54,321 bases of DNA from positions 1 through 54,321 of IMG/VR virus record IMGVR_UViG_3300044788_000028; one strand, 5' to 3'. Positions 24,118 to 25,936 of this stretch are shown piece by piece. This stretch comes from a virus. Within the stretch, counting starts at the first letter, position 1. Every line of letters starts with the position of its first letter. Made by a program: the position numbers and the translations under genes. Under the pieces are notes generated by a model. It did no database searches, was not told the origin of the DNA, and worked only from the letters and a program-made list of their open reading frames with translations.

Positions 24118-25074
24118 TTATTTTGCGTCCCGACACAAGCCAATGAATTCAGCGCGGGCGGCAGCATCGGTCTGCAATACCCCCCGCACAGCTGAGGTAG
24201 TCGTCAAGCTGCCGTGTATCTTCACACCGCGAGAAGACATGCACATATGTGCTGCACGCACCAGTACGCCCACACCAAGCGGAGCAACGTGCGTGACAAG
24301 CGCGTCGGCAATCTGTGTGGTCATACGCTCCTGCACTTGCAACCGCCGAGAAAAAAGGTCCACGAGGCGGGCCAGCTTCGACAATCCCACGATTTTCCCG
24401 TTGGGGATATATCCGACGTGCGCCACCCCATGGATGGGGGCGAGGTGGTGCTCACAGTAGCTCACGACCGGAATGTTGTGTACGATCACCATCTGATTGT
24501 AGTCGGCGCTGCCGTCCGCGAACGACTTGAGCACGTCCTTCGGGTCTTGCCCGTACCCACTCCCCCACTCGCGCCACGCCTTGATGACGCGCGCCGGCGT
24601 CTCCCGCAGTCCTTCTCGGGTGGGGTCGTCGCCGATGTATTGTATCAGGCGGGTCACGATGTCGTGCGCGCTGTTGTCGTTGCCCGCTTCCTCTACCTCC
24701 CACGGGAACACCAGCCACGTCCCGTGCGGGTAGGTCCCTTCTACGATGTCGCAACCCGCCGGGACCTTCTGGAGCAGGGCTACGAAGTGGGCGCCCCGAT
24801 ACTTTTCGTAGTAGCGTAGACGCGTGGCGCCTGAGTCAATCAGGTCGTCCACAAACACATCCGCGGCGTCCGGGTCGTCCGTCATGGTCGCGAAGACGTT
24901 TTCGTTCCGGAACGCCGCCATGACCAGCGCTGCCGCCGCGATCCCGCCGCGCGGGATGCCGTAGAGCTTCAGGTGCTTGGTGCGCAGGGTGGGCAGGTCG
25001 AAGGTACGCACCACACGCTCCGCACAGTCCTGCAACTCCCGCAGGGTGAGCATAACCATGTTAGGCATGCGCAC
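24118..25074 (-). CDS. folE: Fusion protein: Gpt-like purine phosphoribosyltransferase domain plus GTP cyclohydrolase I
   Basis: N-terminal half: YGIPRGGIAAAALV, PRPP loop VFVDDLIDSGATR, AHFVALLQKVPAG and TWLVFPWE. C-terminal half: SYCEHHLAPIHG, GKIVGLSKLARLV and RRLQVQERMT (FolE). The start is GTG 25074 or ATG 25068. Confidence 0.8.
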   Translation of the reverse strand: MRMPNMVMLTLRELQDCAERVVRTFDLPTLRTKHLKLYGIPRGGIAAAALVMAAFRNENVFATMTDDPDAADVFVDDLIDSGATRLRYYEKYRGAHFVALLQKVPAGCDIVEGTYPHGTWLVFPWEVEEAGNDNSAHDIVTRLIQYIGDDPTREGLRETPARVIKAWREWGSGYGQDPKDVLKSFADGSADYNQMVIVHNIPVVSYCEHHLAPIHGVAHVGYIPNGKIVGLSKLARLVDLFSRRLQVQERMTTQIADALVTHVAPLGVGVLVRAAHMCMSSRGVKIHGSLTTTSAVRGVLQTDAAARAEFIGLCRDAK

Positions 25075-25936
25075 CGTCCGCTTGCCTGTCGGTACGAAGG
25101 AAGACGTGGAGACCCGCTACCCACGGGCTCAGGTATCCATCTTGCGCGTCCGCCTTCAGGTACTCGAGGGCACCGCGCAACGCCTCGGGATGGTAGTTGT
25201 TGGTCGTAGGCAGTGCCATCACTCCTTCTGCCGCCGCACGCAGCACCAGCGGGTCGGGGAGATCCGCGTCCACGAACCCCTGCGCCCGTAGGAGGGTCGC
25301 GTGGTCGTGCCCGGTGGGCGGGTACGCCCCGTCATACGCGGTGTGGGTGTACGCGAGGGCGCTGTACGCACCGGGGGTGGCACACGCCAGCCGCACCGTT
25401 TGCGCCTTGGAGTGGAACATCAGCGGAGTGTGGATACGGAACACCCCGTCACGCAGTCCCAGCGCCTTGGTGATGGCGTGCTCCTGTGCCACCACGAACT
25501 CGAGGCGGCAGTCCGGATAGTTGGCGTTATCTGCTTCGCACACCCCGGTGATCAGGTCGTAGCAGTCCAGTGCCACGGCACGGTTCGCGGCCAACGTCAG
25601 GAAGAAGGCGTTCCGCATGGGCACGAACGTCAACTCGACACGGTCGCCGATGACAGTCGCCATCTGTTGAGCGTCCGCGTATTGCTCAAGGACCTGCGTG
25701 GGGTCGGTGAGCGGGCTGCGGCTGCGCAGGACACCGGGCACGCCGACACTTTGTACGTCAACCCCAGCGCGCGCGGCCACGACGGACGCGGCGTCAAGCT
25801 CTCGACTGTGCCGCTGTCCGTAGTTGACGACCAGCGCATGGACCGGGGAGAAGCGGGACAGCGCCCAATACAAGCAGGTGGTGCTATCCTGCCCACCCGA
25901 TAGCACGACGAGGGCGGGAGACTGGTCCTTTGTCAT
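25061..25936 (-). CDS. queC: 7-cyano-7-deazaguanine synthase-like protein lacking the Zn-Cys cluster, with a C-terminal extension
   Basis: [19 protein letters not shown] (PP-loop), [30 protein letters not shown]. Where E. coli QueC has CYNG...[10 protein letters not shown], this protein reads [22 protein letters not shown]. ATG at 25936 (ATGA overlap). Confidence 0.8.
   Translation of the reverse strand: [291 protein letters not shown]

Follow-up and report, generated by a model that had tools for sequence, protein, structure and literature searches.

Loss of all four zinc-binding cysteines in a phage QueC lineage that probably still makes preQ0

Canonical QueC, which converts CDG via ADG to preQ0, carries four zinc-binding cysteines in the motif C(x)8CxxCxxC. 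This Cys4 motif has been used as the hallmark of the family, including in a family-wide survey of 2026, and QueC has been called a zinc-dependent metalloenzyme (PMC13082051 / PMC13329287), while the zinc itself has been described as structural (PMC13376578). The window analyzed here, a stretch of viral DNA of 54,321 nucleotides, encodes a QueC homolog in which the motif is wholly absent. Its position in a DNA modification module raises the question which product such an enzyme delivers and which base is finally inserted into the phage DNA. A sequence-only reading had suggested that QueC without the zinc site might stop at ADG or use a different nitrogen donor, which would change the base inserted by DpdA. 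Our analysis points to another answer: the gene quite probably encodes a working preQ0 synthase that lost its zinc knuckle, with DpdA inserting preQ0 into phage DNA.

The gene and its parts are as follows.

25061..25936, minus strand: queC, 291 amino acids plus stop, ATG start; assigned to the Cys-less clade of phage QueCs
25883..25900, minus strand: PP-loop SGGQDS, the ATP pyrophosphatase motif (residues 13–18), invariant in the alignment with canonical QueCs
25274..25348, minus strand: former zinc-knuckle segment (residues 197–221), located by alignments to 2pg3/3bl5, CAjan, Hedgerow and four-Cys sisters
25190..25273, minus strand: clade-wide C-terminal extension (residues 222–249), consensus PDPLVxRAxxEGLMxLPxTxNY
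25064..25189, minus strand: lineage-specific tail (residues 250–291) with two predicted helices (250–265 and 272–286)

Both sequence profiles and fold identify the protein as a member of the QueC family. It matched Pfam PF06508 (QueC) with E=1.8e-46 (158.8 against a cut-off of 22) and exceeded the cut-off of TIGR00364 marginally, by 0.8 bit (151.1 against 150.3 bits); the cut-off of the enterobacterial equivalog NF008317 was not reached (132.8 against 378). An AF2 model with a pLDDT of 92.9 and a pTM of 0.91 displayed the QueC fold, a Rossmann domain followed by a helical C-terminal domain. The top Foldseek matches of this model were Bacillus subtilis QueC (3bl5; the best match, E=1e-14, TM-score 0.82–0.86 normalized to the target) and 2pg3.

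The catalytic core is that of a canonical QueC. Besides the PP-loop, which follows the SGGxDS definition (PMC13082051), the protein contains YGQRHSRE (39–46), VPMRN (105–109), YPDC (140–143), K177 and Y201. The corresponding motifs SGGxDS, YxQxHxxE, VPxRN and YPDC as well as K177 and Y201 were invariant in an alignment that included the canonical QueCs of CAjan and Hedgerow. In Escherichia coli QueC, mutagenesis revealed Y35, R99, Y131 and Y189 as essential (PMC13082051); these residues correspond to Y39, R108, Y140 and Y201, and every residue with a demonstrated or proposed catalytic role in the E. coli enzyme is invariant in the window protein. The earlier observation of an intact PP-loop and core thus proved correct, and the strings quoted for it are present in the translation at residues 10–21 and 129–148. 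Outside the zinc region, the window QueC differs from canonical QueC by about nine extra residues ahead of VPxRN (QMxxxIGDRVEL) and by DNANYPDC in place of D(F/Y)SGYPDC.

The loss of the cysteines is evident when the protein is aligned by HMMER with QueCs of known structure (2pg3 and 3bl5) or by MAFFT with canonical QueCs encoded by the phages CAjan and Hedgerow/Rosebush. The four ligand columns are occupied by A200, T208, D211 and T214, so that the canonical motif is not formed. The register of these columns is fixed by four-Cys sister sequences whose loop is equally long; they read SHTCYxGxxPPCGxCHACxLRAxGF. All alignments confirmed the claim that the four cysteines are gone, and the quoted segment is present at residues 197–221. 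The substitutes given by the sequence-only reading (A, T/G, H and L) were misplaced by one or two residues at ligands 3 and 4, as the register of the four-Cys sisters demonstrates; the correct series is A, T, D, T. The essential tyrosine of the segment, Y201 (E. coli Y189), is retained. In the model, for which no metal was supplied, the former zinc segment had a pLDDT of 92–96, and confidence remained high through the extension; such values carry no information on metal content.

The second peculiarity of the protein is its long C-terminus. Seventy residues follow LRAQGF, as had been noted from the sequence, in comparison to about 19 past the equivalent point in 2pg3 (a 232-residue chain; the alignment ends at chain residue 213, query residue 223) and a median of 24 in four-Cys relatives (n=22). 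Compared to canonical QueC, this amounts to about 30 conserved and 42 lineage-specific residues. The PDPLVxRAxxEGLMxLPxTxNY segment lies at residues 226–248, where P227, D228, P229, L230, R233, A234, G238, M240, P243, N247 and Y248 were nearly invariant in 120 homologs. P243, N247 and Y248 track the loss of the cysteines: they were found in about 90% of the 0-Cys sequences, and 16 of 24 four-Cys sequences had gaps instead.

Only the window QueC and its two nearest relatives (P0002 and P0003) possess the 42-residue tail behind the extension, in which they have a weak motif, G[YW]xSxW...DG, in common. We considered whether the tail results from read-through or a frameshift and rejected this explanation on account of a GC3 of 0.74 (0.81 in the QueC core), the weak conservation in these two relatives and a helical prediction with a pLDDT of about 88–96 up to residue 280 (95–96 for residues 251–270, 88 for 271–280, below 50 for 285–291). 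Other clade members carry unrelated sequences at this position, and the tails past residue ~249 vary in sequence as well as in length, from none to about 100 extra residues.

The window QueC is not an isolated case. All of its 120 best database homologs were Cys-less and shared both the motif HT[AS]YDGxYPPxGx[DN]HAxxLRAxGF and the extension. The same substitutions combined with the same extension in all 120 argue against a chance loss of the cysteines. We define the clade by HT[AS]YDGxYPPxxx[DN]Hxxx[L]RAxGF devoid of Cys at the four ligand columns, by the extension and by a DpdA module in a phage or prophage; the window QueC displays all three. The Cys-less module was detected in 43 of 227 QueC-bearing phage records, that is, in about one fifth of the QueC-bearing GenBank phage genomes, and metagenomic members of the lineage form about 170 clusters at 50% identity. 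The carriers of the lineage are mostly phages and prophages, including Rhizobium phage RHEph04, Aminobacter phage Erebus and Stenotrophomonas phage ply2008005c, and the proteins have a median length of 251 amino acids. A scan of genome contigs with the window QueC returned one locus, a result of narrow peptide patterns that does not gauge the frequency in cellular genomes. One-Cys intermediates exist in addition to the four-Cys sisters. In a neighbor-joining tree of the core without the zinc region, 0-, 1- and 4-Cys forms interleaved on long deep branches, and this tree did not discriminate between single and repeated loss. We found no paper that describes a zinc-free QueC isoform or remarks on a missing zinc site. 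As to whether the Cys-less form is a common and already characterized subclass, it is indeed common, but characterized only indirectly. Judged from the sequences, the window QueC is part of a large, overlooked phage lineage sharing the Cys loss.

The neighborhood of the gene contains the other enzymes of a preQ0 pathway.

25933..26361, minus strand: ORF of the Endonuclease VII family immediately upstream of queC (PF02945, E=1e-19 to 2e-24)
24118..25074, minus strand: FolE (GTP cyclohydrolase I, residues 139–314; PF01227, E=1.2e-68) with an N-terminal Gpt-like domain
23206..23742, minus strand: QueD (6-carboxytetrahydropterin synthase; PF01242, E=2e-26)
22322..23209, minus strand: DpdA-type DNA guanine transglycosylase, 295 amino acids (PHROG 887 queuine tRNA-ribosyltransferase, E=2.6e-49)
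19261..20040, minus strand: ORF scoring 277.1 bits against TIGR03365 (cut-off 206.1)

FolE, QueD and QueE are encoded within 6 kb of queC on the same strand. The genes of the module lie close together, and start codons overlap preceding stop codons: the queC ATG overlaps the stop of the Endonuclease VII ORF (ATGA), and the GTG start of dpdA overlaps the stop of queD (GTGA). QueF, QueF-L, Gat and ArcS genes were not detected among the window ORFs scanned, and the window encodes no amidotransferase beside FolE, QueD, QueE and DpdA. A megablast search for a close GenBank phage relative of the 8-kb module gave no match. The window phage has no close relative among sequenced ones, and the nearest is a 54-kb MAG contig (L004), the DpdA homolog of which is 48% identical to that of the window. 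When the window proteins were compared with 26 related loci by tblastn, almost all loci of sufficient length had FolE and DpdA homologs adjacent to the Cys-less QueC; about half gave a QueE match and roughly a quarter a QueD match. The same DpdA-module arrangement was present in L001, L004, L006, most of L008–L022, L024 and L025; exceptions without a DpdA match were L016 and L023. A Methylobacterium nodulans prophage combines QueC, FolE and QueD with a radical-SAM gene. Furthermore, phage R26L encodes the Cys-less QueC next to a genuine QueF, and phage MMDA13 next to QueF-L.

Evidence on the product comes from Pseudomonas phage Iggy. Its gp45, reported as a 'prolonged QueC' (QEA09769.1; PMC10484667), has the same Cys-less motif (SHTSYDGEYPPTKNNHSNLLRAQGF) and the conserved extension; the authors commented on how long the protein is, but not on the lack of the zinc site (PMC10484667). 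LC-MS/MS of Iggy DNA revealed dPreQ0 as the sole deazaguanine, with dADG and dCDG standards run alongside (PMC10484667). The window QueC, which belongs to the same Cys-less class, is 54.9% identical to gp45 over residues 6–248. Iggy likewise possesses a module of QueE, QueC, QueD, FolE, DpdA and sliding clamp adjoining helicase and polymerase genes. Differences concern the gp45 tail past the conserved extension, which comprises about 105 amino acids unrelated to the window tail, DpdA (33% identity) and FolE, which lacks the Gpt-like domain in Iggy so that it matches the window FolE only from residue 153 onward. Moreover, Iggy DNA has been analyzed, whereas the window phage is known from its sequence. 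Pseudomonas aeruginosa, the host of Iggy, is expected to have a QueC of its own, and the dPreQ0 is therefore not formally assigned to the phage enzyme. By analogy to Iggy, the window phage most likely carries dPreQ0 in its DNA.

Would an enzyme deprived of its zinc site nevertheless take CDG only as far as ADG, or couple it to another amine, leaving DpdA to insert ADG or another amide? Precedents are the proposed QueC* of Campylobacter phages, a divergent QueC with an altered product put forward as ADG synthase (PMC10516641) and associated, in the CP220 type, with fully dADG phage DNA and a DpdA3 partner, and the RoyL-type deazapurine amide synthetases, of which RoyL attaches amino acids to CDG (bioRxiv 10.64898/2026.04.15.718813). 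The zinc segment also holds an essential tyrosine and borders the active site, and the clade is known from sequence rather than from biochemistry. However, the DNA of Iggy, with the same type of QueC, contained dPreQ0 as its sole deazaguanine, QueF and QueF-L, next to which clade members are encoded, both act on the nitrile preQ0, and each catalytic motif is retained, Y201 included. None of the 43 phage records that contain the Cys-less module belongs to a Campylobacter phage; in phage CP220, where QueC* was sought in the first 50 kb of FN667788, we found only a QueE homolog. RoyL-type enzymes occur in actinomycete peptidyl-deazapurine clusters, the window QueC in a phage DpdA module instead. 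The alternatives raised by the sequence-only reading, namely that the reaction halts at ADG, that nitrogen comes from another donor or that DpdA inserts a changed base, are thus unsupported, and we regard an altered product as very unlikely. Equally unlikely is a protein that is still a metalloprotein, its site rebuilt by H198, D211 and H212 and possibly a residue of the extension. These three residues lie within the former knuckle and were nearly invariant in the 120 close homologs, but H198 and H212 occur equally in the four-Cys sisters (SHTCY..., CHAC) and hence are not replacements, for which reason we rejected such a site. Of 73 Cys-less sequences, 13, including that of Iggy, have Asn at position 211, L, R, A or E takes the place of H212 in a minority of members, and positions 200 (A/S/G), 208 (variable) and 214 (T/S/N) offer no metal ligands.

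A third possibility is compatible with preQ0 as product. The extension, the 42-residue tail or both might dock a partner such as DpdA, the Gpt-FolE fusion or QueE and channel intermediates, in which case activity or stability would need that partner. The ordered helices predicted for the window tail, the variability of tails across the clade and the overlapping genes are in line with docking. Most clade members, in contrast, have no tail beyond the conserved extension although their gene context is the same, and the idea draws on sequence and a structure model; we consider it unlikely.

We therefore return to the preQ0 synthase. The best reading, guided by the structure model, is an ordinary preQ0 synthase in which a longer helical C-terminus would replace the zinc knuckle. 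FolE, QueD, QueE and QueC of the window phage would make preQ0, and the adjacent DpdA would exchange it for guanine in phage DNA. The C-terminal knuckle (CX7-8CX2CX2C), regarded as structural in canonical QueC, has lost all four cysteines in this lineage, and the loop would be held by protein contacts alone. Asp or Asn at position 211, at the start of a helix (212–223 in the model), might act as an N-cap, and the PDPLVxRAxxEGLMxLPxTxNY segment might pack on the C-terminal domain; packing on the former zinc loop is suggested by co-occurrence and confidence values. The chemistry would be unchanged, with ATP-dependent conversion of CDG to ADG and preQ0 using ammonia. We lean towards a truly metal-free lineage, in which the extension and the Asp/Asn cap substitute for the Cys4 knuckle. 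If this holds true, preQ0 synthesis during infection would be independent of zinc loading of QueC.

With canonical QueC, the window protein shares the PP-loop Rossmann fold, all catalytic motifs, the clustering with folE, queD and queE and, presumably, the reaction from CDG via ADG to preQ0. A QueC PP-loop domain encoded within a DpdA module of a phage is likewise found in Gat-QueC of the phage 9g type, which leads to dG+. Unlike Gat-QueC, the window QueC lacks an N-terminal glutamine amidotransferase domain: Pfam reported only QueC, the protein starts seven residues ahead of the first β-strand of the PP-loop domain, and the match to PHROG 1550 begins at model position 146 of 418, missing the N-terminal part of the model. 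QatC and Cap9, protein deazaguanylases of Qat and type IV CBASS, have the PP-loop fold as well, and Cap9 (9nto) was the fourth-best structural match. They keep the Cys4 zinc motif and occur in another genomic context, with QatA/B/D or a CD-NTase as neighbors, and QatC is devoid of YxQxHxxE, VPxRN and YPDC (PMC13082051); the window QueC, in contrast, retains the canonical motifs and neighbors FolE, QueD, DpdA and QueE. The PADLOC match was weak and restricted to the N-terminal residues 3–66.

The concept resembles that of FolE2 (GCYH-IB) relative to FolE, or of QueD2, where the same reaction proceeds without the zinc site of the canonical enzyme. FolE2, however, belongs to a different fold class and still uses a metal, whereas the window QueC has kept its fold and lost a structural site. 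The complete pathway is not free of zinc: the window FolE (CEHH...HMCM) and QueD keep their zinc ligands, the CxxxHGH motif of QueD (defined in PMC10516641) reading CRNVHGH. This weakens zinc economy as the selective reason for the loss. In zinc-starved Acinetobacter baumannii, the zinc cysteine of QueC belongs to the under-metalated sites that have been suggested to restrict queuosine synthesis (PMC12458113). A large natural lineage with all catalytic residues and no zinc ligands provides a ready-made test of whether the zinc is purely structural, illustrates one route by which a protein may replace a zinc knuckle and would provide pathway engineering with a preQ0 synthase independent of zinc. 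In annotation, a Cys-less QueC in a phage DpdA module should be read as a preQ0 synthase and not as a sign of another DNA base. The effect on the understanding of the window phage itself is small.

Two further features of the locus deserve mention. The Endonuclease VII-family ORF upstream of queC, which is absent from the syntenic module of L004, is likely a homing endonuclease; two more ORFs of this family (PF02945) are located at 23739..24167 and 20034..20543. The N-terminal domain of FolE (residues ~30–130) resembles Gpt-like xanthine-guanine phosphoribosyltransferases (NF006613 XPRT, E=2.5e-7; XGPRT structures 1a97/1nul, E ~7e-7; PHROG 8995 phosphoribosyl transferase), and its reading frame may start at GTG 25074, ATG 25068 or ATG 25059.

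The sequence-only reading had placed a QueC homolog in the window, and its coordinates delimit a real gene:

25061..25936, minus strand, QueC, 291-codon ORF (stop codon not counted) with an ATG start

Its start codon shares the sequence ATGA with the stop codon of the preceding ORF, and every sequence string previously quoted from the protein was found in it. The product is QueC, as demonstrated by matches to Pfam PF06508 (E=1.8e-46) and NCBIfam TIGR00364 (151.1 bits; cut-off 150.3) and by an AlphaFold2 model (pLDDT 92.9, pTM 0.91), whose best PDB matches were the QueC crystal structures 3bl5 (B. 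subtilis) and 2pg3 (Pectobacterium).

All four zinc cysteines are missing, both in HMMER alignments to 2pg3 and 3bl5 (0/4 retained) and in MAFFT alignments with two canonical phage QueCs, those of CAjan and of Hedgerow, which belongs to the Rosebush species (0/4 retained); this confirmed the loss read from the sequence. The register was set by sister sequences of identical loop length that retain all four cysteines (SHTCYxGxxPPCGxCHACxLRAxGF). It assigns the replacements to A200 (C1), T208 (C2), D211 (C3) and T214 (C4), so that the earlier assignment (A, T/G, H, L) was slightly out of register. Position 211 is Asp in 60 and Asn in 13 of 73 zero-Cys sequences, with no other residue. Four-Cys, one-Cys (CNNS) and zero-Cys forms constitute a continuum among the listed 50%-identity representatives.

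All 120 best matches in a collection of 5.8 billion proteins were Cys-less (54-68% identity, median 251 aa) and carried HT[AS]YDGxYPPxGx[DN]HAxxLRAxGF followed by the conserved extension PDPLVxRAxxEGLMxLPxTxNY. The C-terminal 67 residues alone, searched against 1.84 billion 50%-identity representatives, yielded 169 clusters. The Cys-less module was present in 43 of 227 GenBank phage records with a QueC match, the hosts being Rhizobium, Pseudomonas, Stenotrophomonas, Dinoroseobacter, Sphingomonas, Aminobacter, Variovorax, Achromobacter, Acinetobacter, Edwardsiella, Vibrio, Microcystis and Pseudanabaena. The single chromosomal copy inspected, from Methylobacterium nodulans, lies within a prophage. 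Judged by sequence, Cys-less QueC evidently represents a clade and not an accident; a neighbour-joining tree gave no definite number of Cys losses.

The window QueC has 70 residues after LRAQGF; the corresponding stretch measures about 19 residues in 2pg3 and has a median of 24 among 22 four-Cys relatives. P243, N247 and Y248 of this extension are present in about 90% of the 73 zero-Cys sequences, and 16 of 24 four-Cys sequences have gaps in these columns. Cys loss and the extension co-vary. Since a few four-Cys sequences already exhibit an EG(x)L-type extension, there is a weak hint that it arose before the zinc was lost. Residues 250-291 are common only to the window QueC and its two nearest relatives, which share a weak G[YW]xSxW...DG motif; the rest of the clade ends at about 250 aa or carries unrelated tails. 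This 42-residue tail is coding-like (GC3 0.74) and forms two predicted helices, confident to about residue 280 in the AlphaFold2 model. A docking role is conceivable, at low probability.

The alignment revealed that SGGxDS, YxQxHxxE, VPxRN, YPDC, the conserved Lys and the Tyr of the zinc segment are invariant in the window QueC. In E. coli QueC, Y35, R99, Y131 and Y189 are essential according to mutagenesis (PMC13082051). Gp45 of Pseudomonas phage Iggy belongs to the Cys-less class, with the motif SHTSYDGEYPPTKNNHSNLLRAQGF, the conserved extension and a ~105-aa tail of its own. The Iggy paper remarks on a 'prolonged QueC' and reports dPreQ0 as the sole deazaguanine of the phage DNA (about 16.5% of G), detected by LC-MS/MS with dADG, dCDG, dG+ and dPreQ1 as standards (PMC10484667). 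A genuine QueF is encoded two genes from the Cys-less QueC of Dinoroseobacter phage R26L, and QueF-L adjoins that of Sphingomonas phage MMDA13. The substrate of QueF and QueF-L is the nitrile preQ0. The window encodes FolE, QueD, QueE and DpdA (PHROG 887, E=2.6e-49); QueF, QueF-L, Gat and ArcS were absent among the scanned window ORFs. Taken together, the invariant catalytic residues, the Iggy dPreQ0, the QueF and QueF-L neighbours and the gene set of the window argue that this QueC probably synthesizes preQ0 in the normal way and supplies it to DpdA, and that dPreQ0 is probably present in the phage DNA. An altered DNA base, as earlier proposed, is disfavoured by the Iggy and QueF/QueF-L data. 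The predicted DNA chemistry of the window phage is left as before.

The zinc of QueC is treated as a structural element that organizes the helical C-terminal domain bordering the active site (PMC13376578; PMC5699537). In the AlphaFold2 model, the former zinc loop (197-211) and helices 212-223 and 229-236 reach pLDDT values of 92-98 without metal, and D/N211 immediately precedes helix 212-223. Asp and Asn typically cap a helix from this position. D211 (or Asn) would cap helix 212-223 in place of the zinc knuckle, and the conserved extension, given its co-variation, may compensate for zinc by packing on the C-terminal domain. A metal site rebuilt from His and Asp is unlikely, because the four-Cys sisters already possess H198 and H212, a fifth of the members, Iggy included, have Asn at position 211, and a minority has another residue in place of H212. 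The neighbouring FolE and QueD both retain their zinc ligands, which weakens zinc sparing as a selective explanation.

Apart from the zinc motif, the protein displays the sequence motifs, profile score, fold and gene neighbourhood of canonical QueC, and its mechanism is probably the same. The lack of an amidotransferase domain sets it apart from Gat-QueC. Nor is it QatC or Cap9, because the genomic context differs, canonical motifs are kept and the PADLOC match is confined to the PP-loop. QueC* of Campylobacter phages is proposed to form ADG (PMC10516641), and RoyL proteins are QueC-homolog amide synthetases (bioRxiv 10.64898/2026.04.15.718813); Campylobacter phages were absent from the 43 records with the Cys-less module. 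We found no description of a zinc-free QueC in the literature, a 2026 family survey gives C(x)8CxxCxxC as a hallmark conserved in the canonical cluster (preprint PMC13082051; published PMC13329287), and the MMDA13 paper labels its Cys-less protein 'canonical QueC'. The lineage is therefore a variant, so far unremarked, of an enzyme already known, with the window protein as one more member. It corrects a textbook-style generalization on QueC zinc and allows the role of the metal to be tested cleanly.

QueC is adjoined by a fusion gene:

24118..25074, minus strand, FolE fusion, Gpt-like domain followed by GTP cyclohydrolase I domain

The N-terminal ~130 aa form a Gpt-like xanthine-guanine phosphoribosyltransferase domain (PDB XGPRT, E about 7e-7) with the motifs GIPRGG, VFVDDLIDSGAT and TWLVFPWE. 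This type of Gpt-FolE fusion also exists in L004, a 54-kb MAG contig and nearest relative of the window phage, in the related loci L010/L013, L022 and L023, and as gp31 of MMDA13. The word phosphoribosyltransferase was absent from the main phage deazaguanine papers in a text search. The domain could recycle DpdA-released guanine into GMP/GTP for FolE, or could ribosylate a deazapurine base by analogy with ToyH-type enzymes.

Several further ORFs are of note:

25933..26361, minus strand, Endonuclease VII-family ORF (PF02945), 142 aa
23739..24167, minus strand, Endonuclease VII-family ORF (PF02945), 142 aa
20034..20543, minus strand, Endonuclease VII-family ORF (PF02945), 169 aa
20702..21181, minus strand, NUDIX hydrolase (PF00293, E=3.6e-9), within the module, flanked by the sliding-clamp homolog and QueE
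14629..15417, minus strand, DUF4406 / nucleoside 2-deoxyribosyltransferase-like (N-terminal part) and DUF6378 protein, 262 aa

The three Endonuclease VII-family ORFs are paralogous, interspersed among the deazaguanine genes and missing from the syntenic L004 module. They fail a GC3 filter of at least 0.72 that most other genes pass, and are likely free-standing homing endonucleases. Among the Cys-less QueC homologs from the database search, P0138, P0140 and P0142 have the Pfam QueC domain split in two stretches, with LAGLIDADG endonuclease domains between them in P0142 (483 aa). P0192 has one QueC stretch and a weak HNH-domain match C-terminal to it. All four look like intein-containing QueC genes, and the module around QueC is an apparent hot spot of selfish elements. 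The NUDIX hydrolase has no counterpart at the equivalent L004 position.

Megablast of the 8-kb module gave no match among GenBank phages. The window (54.3 kb, about 64% GC, almost all genes on the minus strand) has the appearance of a nearly complete genome of a siphovirus-type phage:

9208..10521, terminase
34611..36323, Pam3 gp33/gp34-like proteins
39254..39853, amidase
43548..44387, baseplate hub

UvrD-like and SNF2 helicases and DNA polymerase A are also encoded. The gene at 14629..15417 is located downstream of the family A DNA polymerase gene, and its product may provide another nucleotide-salvage or base-exchange function; L004 holds a related Nuc_deoxyrib_tr-like gene.
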